UHGV virus genome: UHGV-0038498
DNA from: a virus
DNA: 64,000 bases
Strand: one strand, 5' to 3'
The notes under the pieces were generated by a model that had not been told where the DNA came from, searched no databases, and saw only the letters and a list, made by a program, of their open reading frames with translations. Positions within the stretch are counted from its first letter, which is position 1. Each line of letters opens with the position of its first letter. The position numbers and the translations under genes were made by a program. This document shows, piece by piece, positions 4,801 to 19,769 of the stretch.

Positions 4801-5183
4801 AATTCAGCGACTTTTCACAAAGTGGAAAACCTTCAAAGGCAGATGAATACTTAGGTTTATTAATGGCTGCACAAGCTTATTTTCATTCTGCACATTTTGA
4901 AACTAAAAGTTATGCTAGACACAAAGCATACGATTTTATTTTCTCTGAGTTGCCAGATTTGATTGATAAATTTGGTGAGCAATATTTGGGGTATTCTGGT
5001 AGAAAATACACGCCTTCTATTCCAGATGCCAGTAAACTTCCTACCGACACAATTAAAATGATTGATCGCATACTAGACCAATCTAACAGCATTTACAAAG
5101 AAATGCCTCCAGCCATTCAAAGCACGATAGATGATATTACTGGAATGTTTTACCAGAGTAAGTATCTTCTTTCCCTCGAATAA
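4797..5183 (+). CDS. hypothetical protein (128 aa), rI.1-like
   Basis: ORF track; followed by UUCG terminator. Confidence 0.6.
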
Positions 5184-5867: not shown

Positions 5868-6030
5868 AAAGCAGATGTTTTTAATGAAGCTAATTGAAGA
5901 ATATGCTAATGCAGTTTCTGACTATGAGTATTCTGCTCGAGAAAGAGGTACAGCTTTCGCAAAGGAAGAAATGAAAATCATGGTTGATGCTCACACAAAG
6001 CTTCAGAATTTTATTGAAAACGTCATTTAA
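5857..6030 (+). CDS. hypothetical protein (57 aa)
   Basis: Hand-translated (below track cutoff); ATG overlaps previous stop. Confidence 0.4.
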   Translation: MKTEKQMFLMKLIEEYANAVSDYEYSARERGTAFAKEEMKIMVDAHTKLQNFIENVI

Positions 6031-6770: not shown

Positions 6771-7292
6771 ATGTTTATTTCAAGTGGAAGTGGTTTAATT
6801 CGCGTTGAATTTAAAAATGACATCTTCTTTATTCAAGGAGATGATATTATTAAAATGAGTTATGATGAAATTAAGAAAATTTGTAATGCTCTTGAAAATC
6901 ATGGAAAGGTGAATGCTGTCATTGATATTGGCGATTTATGGGTGACACTTTATGAAATATCCGAAGGATTTAACATTGAAGATGAAAACAACATCTTAGC
7001 TATTGATAAAAGAAGTGATTTGTTTGATGTGTTAAAAGTTTATGAACAGTCAAACGGTGGAAGAAAAGCTGTATTAGTTTATCAACAACCACATTCATGT
7101 GGAACTGCTTCAATCATTTCAAATATTGAAGGCGAAGTTGATACTTACATGTGTGTTTTAAAGGCTGGCGGTGACCGTCATCCAGATTTTGTTTCTATTC
7201 GCCAAAACGGTGAAGAAATTTCATTGTCAAAATCAGAAGCTGAGGCTATGATTAAGTATTTAACATACGTTACACCTTCAATGAAAGGATGA
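6771..7292 (+). CDS. hypothetical protein (173 aa), paralogue of 6198-6764
   Basis: C-terminus EAEAMIKYLTYVTPSM shared with preceding ORF. Confidence 0.6.
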   Translation: MFISSGSGLIRVEFKNDIFFIQGDDIIKMSYDEIKKICNALENHGKVNAVIDIGDLWVTLYEISEGFNIEDENNILAIDKRSDLFDVLKVYEQSNGGRKAVLVYQQPHSCGTASIISNIEGEVDTYMCVLKAGGDRHPDFVSIRQNGEEISLSKSEAEAMIKYLTYVTPSMKG

Positions 7293-7756
7293 TTATGATT
7301 ATTAATGAAAACTCTTGGCATTATAAATTATTCAAAATGTTTAACGACGAATGGAAACGACCTAAGACATTGTGTGCATACTTTTGGTCTATTGTTATTC
7401 CTACATTTTTCGTTTCTTTTTTCGGATGTACTATACTCGCAGGTCTAACTATTATCTGTGCAGAAATCATACAGAAATGGCTTATTTTTGGTAGTTTATG
7501 GACTCTTATTCCATCAGCATTTATACTTGCCATTTTGCTTGTTTTACTTATTATTGGTTCATTTGTTATTCCTGCACAACTGCATGAAAAATATAAAGAT
7601 TATAAATGGAAAAAGGATTATGCTTTACATGTAGAAAATATTGATAGGGCGTATAAAGGTTTACCTCCTATTCAACCCAAGAAATCTATTATCGTCGAAT
7701 TTTTAAAAGCGCGTAAAGCTAAAGTATGTCCTGTTATTGAATATAAGGCTGAATGA
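7289..7756 (+). CDS. small integral membrane protein (155 aa)
   Basis: Two or three strongly hydrophobic segments; ATGA overlaps both sides. Confidence 0.6.
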   Translation: MIMIINENSWHYKLFKMFNDEWKRPKTLCAYFWSIVIPTFFVSFFGCTILAGLTIICAEIIQKWLIFGSLWTLIPSAFILAILLVLLIIGSFVIPAQLHEKYKDYKWKKDYALHVENIDRAYKGLPPIQPKKSIIVEFLKARKAKVCPVIEYKAE

Positions 7757-8766
7757 TGAAAACAGTAATGAAAAGCTATTTTGGTAGTCATCTTTATGGA
7801 ACTTCTACTCCAGAATCTGATGTAGATTTTAAAGAAATCTTTGTTCCTCCTGCTCGCGACATTCTTATTGGAAATGTTAAAGAGCATATGAGTAAAAACA
7901 CTAACAACACATCATCTAAAAACACTAAAGATGATATTGACCATGAACTATACAGTCTTAAATATTTCTTTAAATTAGCAGCAGATGGTGAAACTGTAGC
8001 ATTGGATATGCTCCATACTCCACCTGAGTTAGTGGTTAAATCTGATTTGCCTGATGTATGGAAGTTTATTCAAGACAATCGTTCTCGTTTTTATACGACT
8101 AACATGAAATCCTATTTAGGATATGTTCGCAAGCAAGCTTCTAAATACGGCGTCAAGGGTTCTCGTTTGGCCGCATTGCGCGATGTATTGAAAGTAGTTA
8201 ATCAAATCCCCGATCAGTGGGTTGATTATCAAGAAGGAATCCCTGATAGACTTCGTCGTACTAAGGTAGAAGATATCAAACACAGACTCCCTGAAAACGA
8301 GTTCTGTGAATGGGTATTCCATAATCATGAGAAAACAGGCCCACAAACGTTCTACACTGTGTTGGGTCGTAAATATCAGACAACACTTTCTCTTATTGAA
8401 CTTAAGCAATCTTTGAATAAACTTGATGCCGAATACGGTGAACGCGCTCGTAAGGCTGAAGCGAATGAGGGCATTGACTGGAAAGCTCTGAGTCATGCTT
8501 GTCGTGGTGGACTCCAACTATTGGAAATTTACAAAACTGGTGACTTAGTCTATCCACTTCAAGACGCTCCATTTATTCTCGACGTGAAGCTGGGTAAACA
8601 CCCATTTAAAACTGTTCAAGAGTTTTTGGAAGATGTGGTCGATCAAGTAGAAGCAGCATCCATTGAAGCTTCTAAGAACGGTATGCAGCAAAAAGTAGAC
8701 ATGGGTTTCTGGGATGACTTCCTTGAGAGGGTTTATCTTGAAAACCACCGAAGTTATTATAAATGA
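7753..8766 (+). CDS. Pol-beta-superfamily nucleotidyltransferase-like protein
   Basis: 337 aa; N-terminal GS-x10-DVD motif (SYFGSHLYGTSTPESDVDF); terminator follows. Confidence 0.6.
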   Translation: MMKTVMKSYFGSHLYGTSTPESDVDFKEIFVPPARDILIGNVKEHMSKNTNNTSSKNTKDDIDHELYSLKYFFKLAADGETVALDMLHTPPELVVKSDLPDVWKFIQDNRSRFYTTNMKSYLGYVRKQASKYGVKGSRLAALRDVLKVVNQIPDQWVDYQEGIPDRLRRTKVEDIKHRLPENEFCEWVFHNHEKTGPQTFYTVLGRKYQTTLSLIELKQSLNKLDAEYGERARKAEANEGIDWKALSHACRGGLQLLEIYKTGDLVYPLQDAPFILDVKLGKHPFKTVQEFLEDVVDQVEAASIEASKNGMQQKVDMGFWDDFLERVYLENHRSYYK

Positions 8767-8850: not shown

Positions 8851-8880
8851 CTATCAACTGATACGGATTTGGAGAATAAA

Positions 8881-9849
8881 ATGAAAACTGTAACTATCAA
8901 TAAGGGTATCTACTTCGGTAAAGAAATCTCTGGAACTTTTGAGCTCTTAGGCGAATGGTTCCCAGATAATGCTCCGGTAGATGCACAAGGAGATGGTAAA
9001 GTTTTTGTTGAAATTGACGGTAAACGTCGCGGTGTTTGGGTTTACAAATCAGATATTTCATATGATGGTGTAAAGGTTGAAGAAGTTAAAGAATCGTATG
9101 AAGATATGAAAACCCGCATTAATAAAAGATTTAATGTTATGGGAATGATGACGAATGGTATTATTAATGGAAATATTCGTTCATTAATTATCTCTGGCGC
9201 AGCAGGTATTGGTAAAACGTATTCTTTAGATAAAGCTTTGAATAAAGCAAATGATATTGGATACATTGAATATAAAAGCATTAATGGTAAAATCTCTGGT
9301 ATTGGTCTTTATGAGCAGCTTTGGAATAATCGTGAAGAGAATTCTGTCCTTTTGATTGATGATGTGGATGTTTTCTCTGATATGGACATTCTTAATCTTC
9401 TAAAAGCTGCTCTGGACACCGGAGAGACCCGTAAAGTCTGCTGGAGCACTGCGTCTTCTTACTTAGAAGAAAAAGGCATTGAGCGTGAGTTTGAATTTAA
9501 AGGAACGATTGTTTTTATCACAAACGTTGACATTGACCGCGAATTAGACCGTGGTACTAAACTTGCTCCACATTTACAAGCATTAGTGTCCCGCTCAGTT
9601 TATTTGGATTTGGGTGTTCACACTAATGAAGAAATTATGGTCAGGGTTGAAGATGTTATTCTTTCAACTGACATGATGCAAAAGCGCGGTCTTTCTGATG
9701 AAGAAACTTATAAAGCATTATCATGGATGAAAGTTAATGTTAACCGTTTGCGCAATGTTTCACTGCGTACTGCTCTTTATCTTGCTGACTTTATTATGAC
9801 CGACAAAAACGGTTGGGAAGAAATCGCTGAGGTTACTCTTCTGAAATAA
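8881..9849 (+). CDS. P-loop ATPase (AAA-like)
   Basis: Walker A GAAGIGKT, Walker B VLLIDDVD; first ATG after promoter cassette with GGAG SD. Confidence 0.65.
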   Translation: MKTVTINKGIYFGKEISGTFELLGEWFPDNAPVDAQGDGKVFVEIDGKRRGVWVYKSDISYDGVKVEEVKESYEDMKTRINKRFNVMGMMTNGIINGNIRSLIISGAAGIGKTYSLDKALNKANDIGYIEYKSINGKISGIGLYEQLWNNREENSVLLIDDVDVFSDMDILNLLKAALDTGETRKVCWSTASSYLEEKGIEREFEFKGTIVFITNVDIDRELDRGTKLAPHLQALVSRSVYLDLGVHTNEEIMVRVEDVILSTDMMQKRGLSDEETYKALSWMKVNVNRLRNVSLRTALYLADFIMTDKNGWEEIAEVTLLK

Positions 9850-10896: not shown

Positions 10897-11304
10897 ATGA
10901 AACAGTTGATAATTAAAAGATTGAATTTATTGATATGTTGTTTATGTGTAGTAATTGCATATGGTTATTACGCAATTAATGATTATATGCATTATAAAGA
11001 TTATGATGTTACTGTAGTTAATACCATTACAGGAACACAAGGAAAAGGGTCTAGTTTATCGTTTATTGCCGTATATGAACTCAAAGATGGTTATAGATTT
11101 AGTGAATATATTTCCCCAGAGATGTATTCTTCAATAGAAAAAGGTGATAATATTACTGTAAGTTTACGTCCTTTCGACGTAAAACAGACATTGTTTGATA
11201 ATATTGTTTGGTTCTTTGGAATGGTATTAGTTCAATCTGTGTGTGGTGCTTATATAGTCTGTTCCATCTTATTCTGTATATTTAGTAAAATTGAAATTGA
11301 GTGA
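10897..11304 (+). CDS. membrane protein (135 aa)
   Basis: Hydrophobic N- and C-terminal segments. Confidence 0.55.
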   Translation: MKQLIIKRLNLLICCLCVVIAYGYYAINDYMHYKDYDVTVVNTITGTQGKGSSLSFIAVYELKDGYRFSEYISPEMYSSIEKGDNITVSLRPFDVKQTLFDNIVWFFGMVLVQSVCGAYIVCSILFCIFSKIEIE

Positions 11305-11311
11305 GGAAAAT

Positions 11312-12202
11312 ATGTCAGTAGTAATTAATAATGTCAATGCAGTAATTAAATCTTTAGTTAATAAAAAAATGATGAATGAATGGACTGTATTTCGCCGTGC
11401 AGAGCCAGATAAATTTTTTCATAGATTTAACCCAACTTTGGATTTGAATGTTATCGACAGAGATGTTCATGCAGAAATTTTAGATAAGTTTAAAGTTGAT
11501 ATTGGATTTGGATTAGAAAAACATTTGCAGCGAACAAATGGGTCTGGAATGAGTTTATCTAATCGCATTATGAAAGCCCTTAATAAAATTGGAGCATTGT
11601 CTCGTATTAACGCGAGTGAAATCCTTCGTAATTATAATAAAGGATATGACCTTTATGGTCGACTAATGCCGAAATTATCATTCGATCAAATGATTGCGGA
11701 TTTGTGGGAAAATCAACGACGATTATTAGCATTAGGCGCTCGATTAGCTAAAGGTCTAGATAAACAAATGATTTTTAAGACCAATAATACAGAAGACCTT
11801 AAATGCTTTAAATTTAGTATTCGTGGCGATGATTATTACATCAGAGCTCACTCTACAGATTATGTTAATATGGGGCATCATCTCTGTTTAGCTTTTGAAG
11901 TTTTAAAAGAAGCTGGAACATTAGAATATTCATCTGGTGCAAAATGCCCTATTGGTTCAAGTTGTATTTTAATTTATCGCCCGAATGAATCTAGTTCAAC
12001 TACATTGCCTACAAAACCTGTGCCAGTTCGTAGTAACGAAAAACATTCTGAACAAATTGATTATTTTAATAAACAGATTGAAGAGCTGAATATTTCTATT
12101 CAACAATATGATGATGAAATTTTTAGACTATCTGGATTGAGTAGTAAAGCTAAATCTGAGCGTGAAAAGTTAATTAAAATTGTTGATTTACTTAAATCTT
12201 AA
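11312..12202 (+). CDS. coiled-coil-tailed hypothetical protein, paralogue family member 1
   Basis: ATG with GAGGAAAA SD; globular N-domain plus C-terminal heptad repeat. Confidence 0.6.
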   Translation: MSVVINNVNAVIKSLVNKKMMNEWTVFRRAEPDKFFHRFNPTLDLNVIDRDVHAEILDKFKVDIGFGLEKHLQRTNGSGMSLSNRIMKALNKIGALSRINASEILRNYNKGYDLYGRLMPKLSFDQMIADLWENQRRLLALGARLAKGLDKQMIFKTNNTEDLKCFKFSIRGDDYYIRAHSTDYVNMGHHLCLAFEVLKEAGTLEYSSGAKCPIGSSCILIYRPNESSSTTLPTKPVPVRSNEKHSEQIDYFNKQIEELNISIQQYDDEIFRLSGLSSKAKSEREKLIKIVDLLKS

Positions 12203-12210
12203 GGAACACC

Positions 12211-13233
12211 ATGAAAACTCGTTCTCAAATTGAAGATATGGTTCGTAACGCCAGCTATACTCGTGATGTTATGACATTTTTGTGCCAAAATAATTTAGAC
12301 CCTGATAAAGTTAATCGTGTTATTCATCACTTTAAGTATACGAATAGCAGTGAATGGGTGCGTAATTTTAGTAAAGCGGGGTATATTACACAAATGACTG
12401 CTCGTGAGCAGCTCACCGATTTCTGTAAAACTATTGATTATAAAAATCCTCTATTTGTTCAAGGCGTTGGTCAAAGTAAGGTCGATTTATCATCTGGATT
12501 TTTCAATCCAAATCATTATCGTATTGAATGGAGATTTATTGCTCTATTCCGTAGACAATTAAAGCAAATTTTATCAACTGCGAGTCGATTAAAAGGTTCT
12601 GACATTAACTTAAAGAACCTGAAATTTGATGGTTATACTCTTCAGATGGAAGTAAGACCATTAAAAGAAAATAACAGAACTGCACGAATTAGCTTTAAAC
12701 CTAATACAAAAAATTCTCTTTCAATTTGCGAATGCCTTAAATCACAGTTGACAGAAGCATTTAAGTATATGGATGTTGTTGCCGCTGTTCAGTCTAAGAT
12801 TTTACCTCGTTTTGAGCGATTTAAATTAGACACAACAACGTATGAACTTGATATGATCGTTTCATTTAAATACGATTTTTTGAGAAAGGACGAAGTCCCG
12901 CAAGAGAAAAAGCAGGAAGTGCAGGATATCTTAAATTTATCCAATTACTCATCAAACGATCCTAAATTTTGGATGTATAGTTCAGGTAATAATGATGCAT
13001 GGAAATTCAATAAAGTGAATTTTCTTCCTGTTGAAAATCCGAGTCTTAAACCTGTTGAAAAATGGCATGCAGATGCGATTGAGAAGTCTATCAAGGCAGT
13101 AGATGATGAACTCGTTAAAGCAACTAATGAAGTGTTAGAAGCTGAAAAGGTGTTAGAACAAGCACAATCAAGAGTTCAAAATCTGACAAAACAACGTTCT
13201 AAACTGAACAATGCACTAAATGCACTGAACTAG
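12211..13233 (+). CDS. coiled-coil-tailed hypothetical protein, paralogue family member 2
   Basis: 340 aa; motif FRRQLKQILSTASRLKG; C-terminal leucine heptads ...LNNALNALN. Confidence 0.65.
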   Translation: MKTRSQIEDMVRNASYTRDVMTFLCQNNLDPDKVNRVIHHFKYTNSSEWVRNFSKAGYITQMTAREQLTDFCKTIDYKNPLFVQGVGQSKVDLSSGFFNPNHYRIEWRFIALFRRQLKQILSTASRLKGSDINLKNLKFDGYTLQMEVRPLKENNRTARISFKPNTKNSLSICECLKSQLTEAFKYMDVVAAVQSKILPRFERFKLDTTTYELDMIVSFKYDFLRKDEVPQEKKQEVQDILNLSNYSSNDPKFWMYSSGNNDAWKFNKVNFLPVENPSLKPVEKWHADAIEKSIKAVDDELVKATNEVLEAEKVLEQAQSRVQNLTKQRSKLNNALNALN

Positions 13234-13268
13234 TTTACTTTGCCACAAGGATGTGGTATAATGTTCTT
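13228..13268 (+). promoter_or_regulatory. T4-type early promoter with CCACAAGGATGTGG spacer element
   Basis: GTTTAC, spacer inverted repeat CCACA/TGTGG, TATAAT. Confidence 0.6.
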
Positions 13269-13290
13269 ACTTTCTACTGAGGAGATTATT

Positions 13291-14292
13291 ATGACTCGTA
13301 ACGAATATATCAAATCATTCAATAGCGTTATTGATGATAAAGTTAAACCCATGTCTAGTCAGAATGCTGTTCTTTCTATTATCAATCAATGGCTCAGCAG
13401 TATTGATGCAAGTATTGTTTCTTCCAGTAAATTTATTCATGAAGTTCGTGAAATTTCTAGCCGCGTAGATAAAGATGATATTAAGATAACCTTTAAAGGG
13501 TCTCGTCTTCTTTCATATTTGGTTAATCGGGATATTCTTGGTAATTTTGGGAAAGAAATTAAACGAACTAAAGGTGTAATAGGATACAATTGGTTCGGTG
13601 ATGTTAATTCTTATCATCTTAATATTAAAGAAGACCCTAAGAATATTTTTACTCGTCGTTGGATTAGTAATTTCAGACTTTTCAAGAAGCAACTTTTAAA
13701 ATCAGCTTCTAAATTATGTTATGGTGATTATCGTCAAATTCATCCTTTGGCTTCTGATATGATTATCGTAAAAGAATATGAGCTTGATAAAAATAAAGTA
13801 GCTATTTTTGTGAATTATGAATTTTTTACACCAGAAGCTAACCAAAGGAATATTAATAAATTTTTCTCAATTGCTAGCACTATAACTCATCAATTAGAAA
13901 CGGCTTTGGATTGTATGGAAACTGTAAAAAGTATTCATACATATCCTTTCAAAAATATGTGTGGTTGGGAAGGATATAAAATTATAGTTAGTCTCCGTGA
14001 AGTAAAGTGTGCGTACTCACCGACTAATAAAGAAATTTACCAACAAAAATGTGATGAAATTGTGAATACTCCTAAAGAAGAAACTACCCTTGAGGAACTA
14101 ATGGATAATCTTGACGATTCGCCTGAACCGCTAGAAATTCGTCCAGAAGTTATTGCACTAGAAAAAGCTTATAAAGAAGTTCTAGAAATTTCTAATAAAG
14201 CGCAGAAAGAATATGAACAGGCTAAAAGGATTTGGGAAGAATCTGTTAATCGTCTTGATCGTCTTGAACAAGCTTTACAGTTAATTAAGTAA
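13291..14292 (+). CDS. coiled-coil-tailed hypothetical protein, paralogue family member 3
   Basis: ATG after own early promoter and GAGGAG SD; motif FKKQLLKSASKLCYG. Confidence 0.65.
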   Translation: MTRNEYIKSFNSVIDDKVKPMSSQNAVLSIINQWLSSIDASIVSSSKFIHEVREISSRVDKDDIKITFKGSRLLSYLVNRDILGNFGKEIKRTKGVIGYNWFGDVNSYHLNIKEDPKNIFTRRWISNFRLFKKQLLKSASKLCYGDYRQIHPLASDMIIVKEYELDKNKVAIFVNYEFFTPEANQRNINKFFSIASTITHQLETALDCMETVKSIHTYPFKNMCGWEGYKIIVSLREVKCAYSPTNKEIYQQKCDEIVNTPKEETTLEELMDNLDDSPEPLEIRPEVIALEKAYKEVLEISNKAQKEYEQAKRIWEESVNRLDRLEQALQLIK

Positions 14293-14344
14293 TTTAAAGC
14301 CAAGGATGGCTTGGAGCATAAATCATTAACTAAGTGAGAAGAAT

Positions 14345-15274
14345 ATGAAAACTCGTAAACATTATATTGATTATTTTGACAGTCTTATTACTAAACACCG
14401 TAATTATCAGATCGGACACAGAGCAGTAATCAATAATATTCTTCGTGATTTCCTTCAATATGTTGGCCAGGAAAATCATATCTGTAAAGATACTCAAAAC
14501 GCCTATTCTCATTCATTGGGCAATTTGCTTGAATGGTTTAAACGTTCTCGTATGTTATCTTCTACTGTAGCTCGCGATAACATTAAAAACTTTATGAAGC
14601 CGAGCTTCATTAAATCTGCAACATCTATAACCGATTTGGTTGAATTTACTATTGTTAACGATGTTAAAAAGACCCACTTGGCTGATTGGTTATCTACCAT
14701 TCCTGAAACTAAATTTGCTGATAAATTTGCTTGTCAATTCAATGACCAAGTGAATATGCTTTTTAAGCATGCTCGCAAACTATTTACTGCTGGTGATGAC
14801 CGTACAAATACAGTTCATGTTAAGGATTGGGTTATTGCTGATGAAGTAACACACAAGCCAGGTGGTTCATCAGTGTTAATTAATATCCAGGTTCCTTATT
14901 ATTACTCACGTAATCTTGGCACCATGAACTCTAAAGAAATTAATAAGCACAACAAAACTATTCGTTCGTTGTCTTATAAACTCCGCATGATGTTAAAAAT
15001 CATGGACGTAGTAGAAATATATGACGAAATCGAAGATAATGGTTCAATGTTATACAGTTCACGTATTCTAATTAAACTGAAGAACCCTAATACATATAAG
15101 ACAGTTGTAAAAGAGCCTAAAGTAGAAAAGATTGATAACTTGAGCGAAGAACGTGAATATCTCAATGCTCGTTTGATTGAAGTTGAAGCCCAGATTGCCG
15201 AACACACCAAATTGTTAAAAGCTCTTAATGCAAAAGCAAATGGTTTACGTAATGCTATTGAGGTATTGAAATGA
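14345..15274 (+). CDS. coiled-coil-tailed hypothetical protein, paralogue family member 4
   Basis: 309 aa; C-terminal coiled coil ...LLKALNAKANGLRNAIEVLK. Confidence 0.6.
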   Translation: MKTRKHYIDYFDSLITKHRNYQIGHRAVINNILRDFLQYVGQENHICKDTQNAYSHSLGNLLEWFKRSRMLSSTVARDNIKNFMKPSFIKSATSITDLVEFTIVNDVKKTHLADWLSTIPETKFADKFACQFNDQVNMLFKHARKLFTAGDDRTNTVHVKDWVIADEVTHKPGGSSVLINIQVPYYYSRNLGTMNSKEINKHNKTIRSLSYKLRMMLKIMDVVEIYDEIEDNGSMLYSSRILIKLKNPNTYKTVVKEPKVEKIDNLSEEREYLNARLIEVEAQIAEHTKLLKALNAKANGLRNAIEVLK

Positions 15275-15639
15275 AAAAGCGTCTATTAGAAGATATTGCC
15301 GAAGCTTCAGATTTTCCTGAATGGACTCCATGCGCTGGGTTTGATAAAGGACTGTTAGTTACTGACGATTTAGATTTTAAACCTCCAGCCTGGGATGCTA
15401 TTATGGCTATGGTTGAACGTCGCGAAAGGGCTTCTAAAAACGTTCCTAATTGTCCTGAATGCGGTACTGAACAGGTTCAATTAATTAACTGGCGTAAACC
15501 GGAACTTGAATATAAATGCCGTCATTGTAAACACAAATTTAGCAAGCATGCTCCGGAAATGGTTAAATTACCTGACTCTACTGAGTTCTTTAAAGAACTT
15601 GCGAGTGTTCAACCAATGCCTAATAATATTTTGGATTAA
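15271..15639 (+). CDS. zinc-ribbon protein (122 aa)
   Basis: CPECG-x18-CRHCKHKF four-Cys ribbon. Confidence 0.55.
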   Translation: MKKRLLEDIAEASDFPEWTPCAGFDKGLLVTDDLDFKPPAWDAIMAMVERRERASKNVPNCPECGTEQVQLINWRKPELEYKCRHCKHKFSKHAPEMVKLPDSTEFFKELASVQPMPNNILD

Positions 15640-15660
15640 AAATGACAAAGCGTAAAGAAT

Positions 15661-15882
15661 ATGGAGACTGCTGAAAAGGCAGTCCGTGAATTAGCAATAG
15701 CGTATTATAATGAACATGGTAAATTTCCTGATAGATACAGCGTGCTTAAATCTGCTTTAACTCGTTCATATAAAAATATGCTATCAGAAGTAAGTGATAT
15801 TATATACAAACATAAAGAACAAACGGGCCAAAGTCTTGATTACGACGAGACTTTTAAACAAGTACTAGGAATTAAGGAATAA
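15661..15882 (+). CDS. hypothetical protein (73 aa)
   Basis: ORF track; directly upstream of nrdC. Confidence 0.5.
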
Positions 15883-16542: not shown

Positions 16543-16863
16543 ATGACTATTGAAAATAAATTAGATGTTGATGCAGTTCTGAGTGAAATCATCGAAGACC
16601 ATGATGCATTTTCAGAAAATTATGATTTCGATTTTTCGGATTATCTTAAACCTATCGAAATAGAAGACTGGGTGCAAGATGGTAAATGCCAATATCGTCA
16701 GTGTGTTTATTTTAGTCCAAAACATAACGTTCATGTGTCTGTAAATGAATCTCGTTCAGGTTCTTACCATTCTGACTGGTATTATGCAGTTCCGACTGTT
16801 GAACTAGTCGAGCCCCGTGAACGTGTAGTAACTCAGACAGTACGAGAATGGATTACGCTATAA
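16543..16863 (+). CDS. hypothetical protein (106 aa)
   Basis: ORF track. Confidence 0.5.
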   Translation: MTIENKLDVDAVLSEIIEDHDAFSENYDFDFSDYLKPIEIEDWVQDGKCQYRQCVYFSPKHNVHVSVNESRSGSYHSDWYYAVPTVELVEPRERVVTQTVREWITL

Positions 16864-16986
16864 AACCTTGGTGGGCGGCTAGATGGGAAACAGTAGAGCC
16901 AGAGCCGGAAGAACCGGTTTACACCGATGAAGAAACAGTATATAATGAACCGACGATAAATGACTTAATTGATATGGAGATGGGAC

Positions 16987-17433
16987 ATGATTACAGTAGA
17001 TAAGTGGTTTAGAATTAATCGTGCTGATAAAGGGTTGTGTAATTACTGGCCTGAACTTAGTGCAGGTACTGTCTTTAAAGTTCGTGAACTTGCAAAAGAA
17101 TGTGAAGATGACATAGAACCTGATACTGGAATTATTGAAATTGAACTTTCTGATGGAAAGATTATTAACATCTACGATAAGCCAATTACGTATTGGTGCT
17201 TGTGGAATACTGAATCAGCAGAAAATGGCGAAATTGAAGAAGTTGTAGAACGAACTGATCAAGTTCTTCATAAACCTAAAGCTGGATTTCAGGGTGAACG
17301 TATTTCATATGCATTAGCTAAATTAGCTGCACAAGAAAATAATGATGGTTATGAAGGAAATTTGATGCAAGCTGCAGCAGAATATATTGAATGGCTTGAA
17401 ACTCAAATTTCTTTTTCTGACCGAGCGTTTTAA
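16987..17433 (+). CDS. hypothetical protein (148 aa), position of T4 pin
   Basis: In-frame ATG of track ORF 16969; identity with Pin not verified. Confidence 0.45.
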   Translation: MITVDKWFRINRADKGLCNYWPELSAGTVFKVRELAKECEDDIEPDTGIIEIELSDGKIINIYDKPITYWCLWNTESAENGEIEEVVERTDQVLHKPKAGFQGERISYALAKLAAQENNDGYEGNLMQAAAEYIEWLETQISFSDRAF

Positions 17434-17481: not shown

Positions 17482-17955
17482 ATGTTATTGACTGGCAAAT
17501 TATACAAAGAAGAAAAACAAAAATTTTATAATGCACAAAATGGTAAATGCTTAATTTGCCAACGAGAACTAAATCCTGATGTTCAAGCTAATCACCTTGA
17601 CCATGACCATGAATTAAATGGACCAAAAGCAGGAAAGGTACGTGGATTGCTCTGTAATCTTTGCAATGCAGCGGAAGGTCAAATGAAGCACAAATTTAAT
17701 CGTTCTGGCTTAAAGGGACAAGGCGTTGATTATCTTGAATGGTTGGAAAATTTACTTACTTATTTAAAATCCGATTACACCCAAAATAATATTCACCCTA
17801 ACTTCGTTGGAGATAAATCAAAGGAATTTTCTCGTTTAGGAAAAGAGGAAATGATGGCTGAGATGCTTCAAAGAGGATTTGAATATAATGAATCTGACAC
17901 TAAAACACAATTAATAGCTTCATTTAAGAAGCAGCTTAGAAAGAGTTTAAAATGA
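17482..17955 (+). CDS. 49: endonuclease VII (Holliday junction resolvase)
   Basis: 157 aa, MLLTGKLYKEEKQKF...CNLCNAAEGQ matches T4 gp49; hairpin upstream. Confidence 0.93.
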   Translation: MLLTGKLYKEEKQKFYNAQNGKCLICQRELNPDVQANHLDHDHELNGPKAGKVRGLLCNLCNAAEGQMKHKFNRSGLKGQGVDYLEWLENLLTYLKSDYTQNNIHPNFVGDKSKEFSRLGKEEMMAEMLQRGFEYNESDTKTQLIASFKKQLRKSLK

Positions 17956-19769
17956 CAATTGAAAAAGAAATTGAAGGATTGATTCATAAAACTAATAAAG
18001 ACCTTTTAAACGAGAATGCTAATAAAGATTCTCGTGTTTTTCCAACTCAACGGGACCTTATGGCTGGTATTGTGTCTAAACACATTGCCAAAAATATGGT
18101 CCCGTCTTTTATTATGAAAGCGCATGAAAGCGGAATTATTCATTTCCATGATATTGATTATTCCCCTGCTCTTCCATTTACTAATTGCTGTTTAGTAGAT
18201 TTAAAAGGAATGCTTGAGAACGGATTTAAGCTCGGTAATGCACAGATTGAAACTCCTAAATCAATCGGCGTTGCTACTGCAATTATGGCACAAATTACTG
18301 CACAGGTTGCTTCTCATCAATATGGCGGAACGACTTTTGCGAATGTAGATAAAGTACTTTCTCCTTATGTTAAACGCACCTATGCAAAACATATTGAGGA
18401 TGCAGAAAAATGGCAAATCGCTGATGCGTTGAATTATGCCCAATCTAAAACAGAAAAAGACGTATACGATGCATTCCAAGCTTATGAATATGAAGTAAAT
18501 ACTCTCTTTAGTTCAAACGGACAAACGCCTTTTGTAACAATTACATTTGGTACGGGAACTGACTGGACTGAACGAATGATTCAGAAAGCAATTCTGAAAA
18601 ATCGTATTAAAGGCCTTGGTCGCGATGGGATAACTCCTATTTTCCCTAAACTTGTTATGTTCGTTGAAGAAGGCGTTAATCTTTATAAAGACGATCCGAA
18701 CTATGATATTAAGCAGCTTGCTCTAGAGTGCGCAAGCAAAAGAATGTATCCTGATATTATTTCAGTTAAGAATAATAAAGCTATCACGGGTTCATCTATT
18801 CCTGTTTCTCCAATGGGTTGCCGCAGTTTCTTGAGCGTATGGAAAGATTCGACTGGTAATGAAATTCTTGATGGACGTAATAATCTTGGCGTTGTAACAC
18901 TGAATCTTCCTCGCATTGCGTTAGATTCTTATATTGGAACACAATTCAATGAACAGAAATTTGCCGAATTGTTCAATGAACGAATGGATTTGTGTTTTGA
19001 AGCTTTAATGTGTAGAATTAGTTCCTTAAAAGGAGTTAAAGCGACTGTTGCTCCTATTCTTTACCAAGAAGGTGCATTCGGGGTTCGTCTTAAACCTGAT
19101 GACGACATAATTGAGTTATTTAAAAACGGTAGAAGTTCAGTGTCTTTAGGATACATTGGTATTCACGAATTGAATATTCTTGTCGGTCGTGATATTGGAC
19201 AGGAAATTTTAACTAAAATGAATGCTCGTCTTAAGCAGTGGACTGAAAGAACCGGTTTTGCTTTTAGCTTGTATTCTACACCTGCTGAAAACCTTTGTTA
19301 TCGCTTCTGTAAACTTGATACCGAAAAATATGGAAGTGTAAAGGATGTTACTGATAAAGGCTGGTACACTAACAGTTTCCACGTTTCAGTAGAAGAAAAT
19401 ATTACTCCGTTTGAAAAGATTTCTCGCGAAGCCCCGTATCATTTCATTGCGACAGGTGGTCACATTTCTTATGTTGAACTTCCTGATATGAAAAATAACT
19501 TAAAAGGTCTTGAGGCTGTATGGGATTATGCTGCACAACATTTAGATTATTTTGGTGTTAACATGCCAGTAGATAAATGTTTTACATGCGGAAGTACCCA
19601 TGAAATGACTCCTACTGAAAACGGATTTGTTTGTTCTATTTGTGGAGAAACTGATCCTAAAAAGATGAACACAATAAGAAGAACTTGTGGTTATTTGGGA
19701 AATCCGAACGAACGTGGATTTAATCTTGGCAAAAATAAAGAAATCATGCATAGGGTTAAACACCAATGA
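17952..19769 (+). CDS. nrdD: anaerobic ribonucleotide reductase large subunit
   Basis: 605 aa uninterrupted ORF; glycyl-radical motif RRTCGYLG near C-terminus. Confidence 0.93.
   Translation: MTIEKEIEGLIHKTNKDLLNENANKDSRVFPTQRDLMAGIVSKHIAKNMVPSFIMKAHESGIIHFHDIDYSPALPFTNCCLVDLKGMLENGFKLGNAQIETPKSIGVATAIMAQITAQVASHQYGGTTFANVDKVLSPYVKRTYAKHIEDAEKWQIADALNYAQSKTEKDVYDAFQAYEYEVNTLFSSNGQTPFVTITFGTGTDWTERMIQKAILKNRIKGLGRDGITPIFPKLVMFVEEGVNLYKDDPNYDIKQLALECASKRMYPDIISVKNNKAITGSSIPVSPMGCRSFLSVWKDSTGNEILDGRNNLGVVTLNLPRIALDSYIGTQFNEQKFAELFNERMDLCFEALMCRISSLKGVKATVAPILYQEGAFGVRLKPDDDIIELFKNGRSSVSLGYIGIHELNILVGRDIGQEILTKMNARLKQWTERTGFAFSLYSTPAENLCYRFCKLDTEKYGSVKDVTDKGWYTNSFHVSVEENITPFEKISREAPYHFIATGGHISYVELPDMKNNLKGLEAVWDYAAQHLDYFGVNMPVDKCFTCGSTHEMTPTENGFVCSICGETDPKKMNTIRRTCGYLGNPNERGFNLGKNKEIMHRVKHQ

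Follow-up and report, generated by a model that had tools for sequence, protein, structure and literature searches.

The nrdC.6 to nrdC.3 array and its proteins

The stretch analysed here, 64,000 nucleotides (nt) of UHGV virus genome UHGV-0038498 (hereafter the window), derives from a T4-like phage (Tequatrovirus) and carries, at positions 11,312 to 15,274, four consecutive plus-strand genes, termed A to D, whose products were found to form one superfamily. The original prediction, made from the nucleotide sequence alone, had listed genes of 296, 340, 333 and 309 amino acids (aa), and its coordinates, lengths and quoted peptides all proved exact. Synteny with the T4 reference genome (NC_000866) revealed A, B, C and D to be the orthologues of T4 nrdC.6, nrdC.5, nrdC.4 and nrdC.3, respectively. 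The array is flanked by nrdC.7 before A and nrdC.2 after D, with nrdC, pin, gene 49 and nrdD following further on. The region 11000–15700 matched 660 phage records, nearly all of them Tequatrovirus, and shares 97.7% identity with Shigella phage ESh26. Each single gene of the array is present in about 550–740 phage records. A Shine-Dalgarno site lies in front of each of the four genes, and A and B, spaced by 9 nt, are close-packed behind nrdC.7.

Paralogue A (11312–12202, 296 aa) is ~98% identical to T4 NrdC.6, a frameshift in T4 aside, and matches phrog_2257 at E 7e-152; its homologues bear PF26899. Paralogue B (12211–13233, 340 aa; phrog_2351) is 97% identical to T4 NrdC.5 over 340 aa, with equal length and equal position between the nrdC.6 and nrdC.4 orthologues, as in T4, and gave a full-length match to Pfam DUF7235 (PF23882; 421.6 bits, cutoff 30). 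The PF23882 model did not match A, C or D, and it was matched by 14 of the 71 superfamily members scanned at E ≤ 0.1. Paralogue C (13291–14292, 333 aa) shares 89% identity with T4 NrdC.4 and has homologues bearing PF26897, while paralogue D (14345–15274, 309 aa) is a divergent allele with 61% identity to T4 NrdC.3, conserved at its ends and 40–56% identical in the middle; phrog_1435, paired with PF26897 in the public classification, covers both C (E 9e-166) and D (E 4e-116). GenBank records often label nrdC.2 to nrdC.6 and nrdC.11 as 'thioredoxin', evidently carried over from the positional gene names; no thioredoxin signature was found in any of the four proteins.

Homology and architecture of the four proteins

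The original prediction had proposed that the genes are divergent paralogues and had suggested an all-versus-all alignment. By BLASTP, the pair C–D was significant (E 7e-7) and the remaining five pairs were not (E > 0.05). With C–D alone passing, pairwise BLASTP was dropped as a paralogy test for being too insensitive, and the other pairs were joined by profiles and intermediate sequences. Profile–profile comparison with hhalign linked C and D at 98% probability (E 8e-14), and B and C at 72% probability (E 3e-5) over 169 columns. A merged MAFFT alignment of the families was collinear from the N-terminus through the last residue.

The recurring internal motif named in the original prediction fell into one and the same column in all six hhalign pairs as well as in the MAFFT merge. 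It reads NQRRLLALGARLAKG in A (aa 134–148, positions 11711–11755), where it lies in a helix pair of the model at 124–133 and 135–145, and FRRQLKQILSTASRLKG in B (aa 113–129, 12547–12597), with model helices at 105–115 and 117–128. The corresponding segments are FKKQLLKSASKLCYG in C (aa 131–145, 13681–13725) and LFKHARKLFTAG in D (aa 139–150, 14759–14794), all on the plus strand.

Iterative searching with jackhmmer through intermediates from further T4-like genera joined all four families, and none of 365 decoys was recruited. Three bridging sequences (P0236, P0239 and P0242) matched the hidden Markov models (HMMs) of both the A and the B family (E 6e-16 to 6e-7), and a fourth (P0233, from Klebsiella phage F48) matched those of the B, C and D families. 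A neighbour-joining tree resolved clades for A (100% bootstrap), B (89%) and C plus D (94%), which track gene order in every multi-copy genus. From the profile links, the constant motif column, the bridging sequences and the tree clades following gene order, we conclude that A to D are one superfamily. Its range is narrow: a profile search of 1.84 billion representative proteins gave 26 matches, every traceable one from T4-like phages.

The placement of A is the part of this conclusion that some results weigh against. The hhalign pairs involving A were non-significant (E 0.015–0.06), and a jackhmmer search seeded with A failed to reach B, C and D, so that A appears linked to the other three solely via intermediate sequences. 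The models of A and B described below were built on merged alignments that overlap, so that they are not fully independent.

AlphaFold2 monomer models were obtained for A (mean predicted local distance difference test (pLDDT) 83, predicted template modelling score (pTM) 0.67) and for B (pLDDT 70, pTM 0.56). The structure-prediction check suggested with the original prediction turned out in its favour, in that both models give the same order of elements: N-terminal helices, a beta-hairpin, a helix, a second beta-hairpin, a linker and a single terminal helix. The N-terminal part comprises several helices including two helix pairs, the second of which bears the shared motif. In A, helices extend to residue 157, followed by strands 166–171 and 174–179, helix 187–200, strands 205–210 and 218–222, the linker and helix 246–295; in B, helices extend to residue 128, followed by strands 142–151 and 155–164, helix 169–185, strands 190–201 and 209–219, the linker and helix 281–339. 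The linker is modelled with low confidence (228–242 in A, 226–276 in B).

Leucine-heptad tails, likewise claimed at the outset, were significant in all four proteins (p ≤ 0.002) and are modelled as one uninterrupted helix of 50–59 residues in A and B. Over its final 49 residues, each protein has hydrophobic residues at 12–13 of the 14 a/d positions (p values by shuffle test), and this segment is the top-scoring heptad window of its protein, with no other 49-residue window as high. In A, the predicted helix covers aa 246–295 (positions 12047–12196; pLDDT 93–97 over the last 50 residues; heptad p = 0.0004), and in B aa 281–339 (13051–13227; pLDDT 62–89; p < 0.0002), with IVLAVALAVLRLLL at the a/d positions. 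The tails of C (last 49 aa, 14143–14289) and D (last 49 aa, 15125–15271) gave p = 0.0012 and p = 0.0018. Across the superfamily, 22 of 29 representatives show the heptad pattern in the same register at p < 0.01. The extreme C-terminus contains the most conserved columns of the family (in B numbering L332, 97%; A335; L339, 86%; K340). Judged from this pattern and from the models, the tails most likely form a coiled-coil oligomer. Close to the C-terminus, one and the same core heptad position holds an arginine in most members that are A-type, B-type or single-copy, and Leu or Ala in those of the C and D types; the arginine may determine register or pairing specificity.

The heads are basic, with an isoelectric point (pI) of 8.4–9.5, and the tails are acidic to neutral. 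A membrane protein was rejected given that hydrophobic runs are lacking, and a DNA mimic of the Ocr/Arn type was rejected because A to D are basic rather than acidic. In line with the original remark that no catalytic motif is recognisable, the superfamily alignment held no conserved constellation of acidic, histidine, cysteine or serine residues, and neither Pfam nor NCBIfam gave a functional match for A to D or for the 71 superfamily members scanned. Weak Pfam/NCBIfam matches to DUF4164, V-SNARE, PgrA, DUF3905 and Med29 were rejected as coiled-coil or low-score noise. Searches of the PDB revealed no solved structure of a family member and no sequence relative, the family profile giving sub-threshold coiled-coil matches only (SMC, GCN4, APC), and no reproducible fold match; for the RNA polymerase alpha-NTD / RBP11-like dimerisation fold, a reproducible specific structural match was not obtained. 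A search of BFVD with the B model returned uncharacterised proteins of T4-like phages only (Erwinia Cronus, Klebsiella Mineola, Yersinia fHe-Yen9-01, Aeromonas 65.2).

Copy number, promoter cassettes and sequence variation

A superfamily HMM was used to count copies in the window and in the loci of relatives (64–169 kb of T4 lying outside the count). Exactly four copies were found in the 64-kb window, and four in complete Tequatrovirus loci. Mosigvirus has three (A', B' and D, without C), as do Gaprivervirus VR7 and Dhakavirus VR5 (A, B' and C, without D), and one copy is present in Kanagawavirus (CIP9, PEi20), Mosugukvirus PM2 and Marfavirus F48. The comparison across T-even phages suggested with the original prediction hence gives 1, 3 or 4 copies according to genus. 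In every case the paralogue or paralogues lie directly upstream of the nrdC.2 homologue, and throughout the multi-copy genera A-type, B-type and C/D-type genes co-occur in constant order. A 256-aa open reading frame (ORF) beside the single-copy genes of Kanagawavirus, Mosugukvirus and Marfavirus was considered as a further paralogue and found to be unrelated (hhalign probability 2.4%).

The early promoter that had been assigned to one member was located as an early-type promoter of C, GTTTACTTTGCCACAAGGATGTGGTATAAT, at 13233–13262 on the plus strand. It has the form GTTTACT-N17-(TG)TATAAT with the inverted repeat CCACA/TGTGG in the spacer, and is identical in T4 and in the four other Tequatrovirus loci searched (L003, L004, L007, L008). 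Upstream of D lies a decayed promoter copy, AATTTAAAGCCAAGGATGGCTTGGAGCATAAA (14291–14322, plus strand), with degenerate -35 and -10 hexamers, the latter being CATAAA here and TATAAA in T4; its spacer element CCAAGGATGG recurs in the promoters that are intact in Mosigvirus, VR7 and VR5. Homologous early-type promoters with the CCAAGGATGG inverted repeat in the spacer precede all three Mosigvirus genes, and in VR7 and VR5 promoters of this type stand before the first gene and before the last. Promoters with the spacer repeat lie at ~4905–4945, 5950–5995 and 6940–6970 in locus L009, and at ~4950–4990 and 6944–6975 in loci L010 and L011. The majority of paralogue copies have their own early promoter cassette.

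Since homologous promoters precede successive paralogues, the duplicated unit comprises promoter plus gene. We propose that a single ancestral gene directly upstream of nrdC.2 in T4-like phages would have given rise to A to D, with tandem duplication of such a cassette raising the copies from one to three to four. A similar arrangement is known from PeSL (promoter-early stem-loop) cassettes, which have been proposed to reshuffle modules where T4-type genomes are hyperplastic (Arbiol et al. 2010, PMC2839356; Comeau et al. 2014, PMC4122927). As in those cassettes, the early consensus TTTACW-N17-TAYWAT, a short inverted repeat and a Shine-Dalgarno site are repeated here before successive variable genes, whereas the published stem-loop is just upstream of the promoter and the inverted repeat CCAAGGATGG sits between the -35 and -10 hexamers. 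By this analogy, PeSL-like shuffling would fit the copy-number differences and the mosaic D alleles.

The ratio of non-synonymous to synonymous substitution rates (dN/dS) was 0.11–0.28 for A to D, versus 0.01–0.07 for the flanking nrdC.10, nrdC.8, nrdC and gene 49 (n = 5–7 sequences). The nrdC.10 orthologue (8869–9849), with a Walker-A motif GAAGIGKT, is an AAA-type ATPase under strong purifying selection (dN/dS 0.07), unlike the adjoining array.

D occurs in three allele classes at about 95–99%, 75% and 60% identity, and the allele of the window groups with the Mosigvirus gene at 100% bootstrap. D and the adjoining nrdC.2 (together 14345–15639) have dN values of 0.18 and 0.09 versus other Tequatroviruses, far above the surrounding genes. 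The unusual divergence of both, taken with the Mosigvirus grouping of D, suggests an exchanged block spanning D and nrdC.2. The nrdC.2 gene encodes 122 aa here and has a CxxC...CxxC zinc-ribbon-like motif.

Disrupted or rearranged members were observed among the relatives. T4 reference nrdC.6 (NC_000866, 52066–52893) carries a frameshift after about residue 259 compared with the window and most relatives, and its 275-aa product ends in ...EELIFLFNNMMMKFSDYLD, without the heptad tail; either T4 naturally lacks this tail or the reference sequence is in error. In one protein found on three contigs (P0119; longest contig 167 kb), B 146–272 is fused to D 129–309 at an FN..VN microhomology, the deletion taking out the end of B, the whole of C and the start of D. 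NrdC.6 of Shigella phage Sf25 (P0120, 378 aa) has an internal tandem duplication of 177–259, which takes in the sandwich, the linker and the first part of the tail. The nrdC.4 orthologue in locus L003 (IMGVR_UViG_2974742932_000001, 6916–7948) is split by a frameshift near codon 177–179 and represents either a pseudogene or a sequencing error. Natural deletion, fusion, frameshift and internal duplication are as expected for accessory genes.

Beyond the array, nrdD (17952–19769) is a single unbroken ORF of 605 aa; the T4 reference nrdD has a group I intron with I-TevII, and mobC adjoins it.

Function and comparison with known systems

A function has been described for one member of the block. 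A T4 clone with compensatory deletions was unable to infect ECOR17 unless dsr1 was deleted from the host (Srikant, Guegler & Laub, eLife 2022; PMC9391042). Plasmid-borne Dsr1 protected MG1655 against the T4 deletion clone, and T4 nrdC.5 in trans restored plating of the mutant on Dsr1-bearing cells (PMC9391042). Dsr1 is a SIR2-domain protein, of which an Avs7-like sensor recognises phage major capsid proteins (PMC13581612). The NAD+-reconstitution pathways NARP1/2 and NARP3 have been reported to overcome Dsr1 by rebuilding NAD+. In the literature search, no single phage gene countering Dsr1 was found besides nrdC.5, and no mention of nrdC.3, nrdC.6, DUF7235 or the paralogy of the block was found; for NrdC.5, the papers retrieved described neither a mechanism nor a structure nor a family relationship. 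The block is dispensable in laboratory hosts, and a spontaneous 'nrdC.1-6' deletion of T4 is viable (PMC9825161).

Because it is 97% identical to T4 NrdC.5, B of the window probably neutralises Dsr1 as well. In the neighbourhood, a homologue (106 aa) of gp49.2 is encoded at 16543–16863, ~1.3 kb downstream of D and beside pin (Lon protease inhibitor). The gp49.2 protein of T6 was reported in 2026 to inhibit the defence nuclease OLD (PMC13096335), so that the region, including the interval 16969–17433, looks like an anti-defence island.

The explanation that we favour, at a probability of roughly 60%, is that A to D are a set of diversified defence inhibitors that are non-enzymatic and probably oligomeric. 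Each would consist of a basic, folded, non-enzymatic head, built of a helical bundle and a small beta-alpha-beta sandwich, then a disordered linker of variable length, and then a conserved amphipathic heptad helix of ~50 residues, most likely a coiled-coil oligomer. The proteins would be early and accessory and would most likely bind host immune proteins and thereby neutralise them, in a stoichiometric manner. NrdC.5 (B) would neutralise the SIR2-type NADase Dsr1, by analogy with DSAD1 blocking DSR2, and A, C and D would act on other defence proteins or on variant alleles.

Several points weigh against this explanation. The published support for an anti-defence role concerns B/NrdC.5 only and is a genetic phenotype; direct binding as the mechanism is suggested by the DSAD1 analogy. 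The anti-defence guess of the original prediction was borne out for B, through T4 nrdC.5 and Dsr1 (PMC9391042), and is extended to A, C and D by paralogy and neighbourhood only. The coiled coil and the oligomeric state of the tails are likewise deduced from sequence pattern and monomer models. Gene-wide positive selection was not seen, all dN/dS values (0.11–0.28, n = 5–7 sequences) being below 1, and A is strongly conserved within Tequatrovirus (mostly 95–99%), which sits less well with a target in an arms race.

Another explanation, which we regard as possible although improbable, is a modular 'adaptor' repertoire, where the invariant tail coil, with its conserved core arginine and terminal L..A...LK, would be a common docking or assembly module and the fast-diverging heads would each catch a different host immune sensor. 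If this were true, the tail would dock on one shared partner or build mixed paralogue oligomers, and a cassette-shuffled anti-immune receptor set (1, 3 or 4 heads, with D alleles swapped between genera) would tune host range.

It is somewhat less probable still that A to D assemble through their heptad helices into one hetero-oligomeric complex and act as a single functional unit, be it anti-Dsr1 or other. Conservation across the paralogues is highest in the tail, notably in the last ~10 residues, and the tail heptads share one register; A-, B- and C/D-type genes always occur together and in the same order in multi-copy genera; and A and B are translationally close-packed (9 nt) behind nrdC.7. 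Single-copy genera exist, however, so that the protein can work without paralogous partners, and C or D is each missing from whole genera. Natural variants also lose or truncate single members, namely through the frameshifts in the T4 NrdC.6 tail and in C of L003 and through the B::D fusion deleting C. Furthermore, nrdC.5 alone was sufficient in trans, although that mutant may still have had the other paralogues.

Of similarly low standing is the idea that the proteins are host-takeover regulators, or regulators binding nucleic acid or RNA polymerase, with an indirect effect on Dsr1, for example through timing or amount of the capsid-protein trigger. The basic heads (pI 8.4–9.5) would suit such a role, and expression changes could matter given that the trigger of Dsr1 is the major capsid protein (PMC13581612). 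D gave sub-threshold matches to the integrase N-terminal SAM-like domain and XerC/D (E 0.002–0.05), but this likeness was rejected as being far under the cutoffs and was not reproduced in the other 70 of the 71 members scanned. Full dispensability of the block in laboratory hosts would moreover be unusual for a general takeover factor and is typical of host-specific counter-defence.

Non-homology of A to D, with a chance or convergent helical motif and low-complexity coiled-coil tails, could draw on the five of six non-significant BLAST pairs and on the division of four genes among three Pfam families (PF26899, PF23882, PF26897) and three PHROGs, but is effectively refuted by the full-length collinear alignment, the motif column constant in six profile pairs, the agreement of the A and B models in element order, and the common syntenic slot and promoter cassette.

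The genes themselves are long-known T4 ORFs, one of which (nrdC.5) has a published anti-defence phenotype, so that this is not a new kind of system. New here are the four-way paralogy, the common head–linker–coil architecture, and the promoter-cassette expansion from one to three to four copies. Three uncharacterised Pfam families (PF23882, PF26897, PF26899) are united. As NrdC.5 counters Dsr1, family membership makes its three paralogues, A, C and D, good candidate inhibitors of other defences. The architecture separates a variable head from a conserved tail as parts to mutate, and natural test material is provided by T4 NrdC.6 with its frameshifted tail, by the D alleles in their three classes and by the genera with one copy. 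The array also shows clearly how an anti-defence gene has expanded in tandem together with its promoter, in the best-studied group of lytic phages.

B is the orthologue of T4 NrdC.5, whose distant paralogues A, C and D share its architecture and fall outside PF23882. The proposed model for the mechanism of NrdC.5 against Dsr1 is DSAD1 (SPbeta family), which, by binding the DSR2 sensor domain, keeps the tail tube protein from activating this sirtuin NADase (PMC10973363, PMC10981675, PMC11087589). Neither sequence nor fold similarity to DSAD1 was detected; the likeness would lie in a small non-enzymatic phage protein disarming a defence-associated sirtuin that senses a virion structural protein. 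A second comparison is with the anti-defence clusters of T-even phages, such as the dmd-tifA-adfA 'anti-TA island' (PMC9391042) and gp49.2 acting against OLD (PMC13096335). The array resembles these in consisting of early, dispensable, clustered accessory genes in a variable region, where in the known clusters each gene neutralises one host defence. Unlike in those clusters, whose genes are unrelated in sequence, four members of one family stand side by side here as a paralogue expansion.

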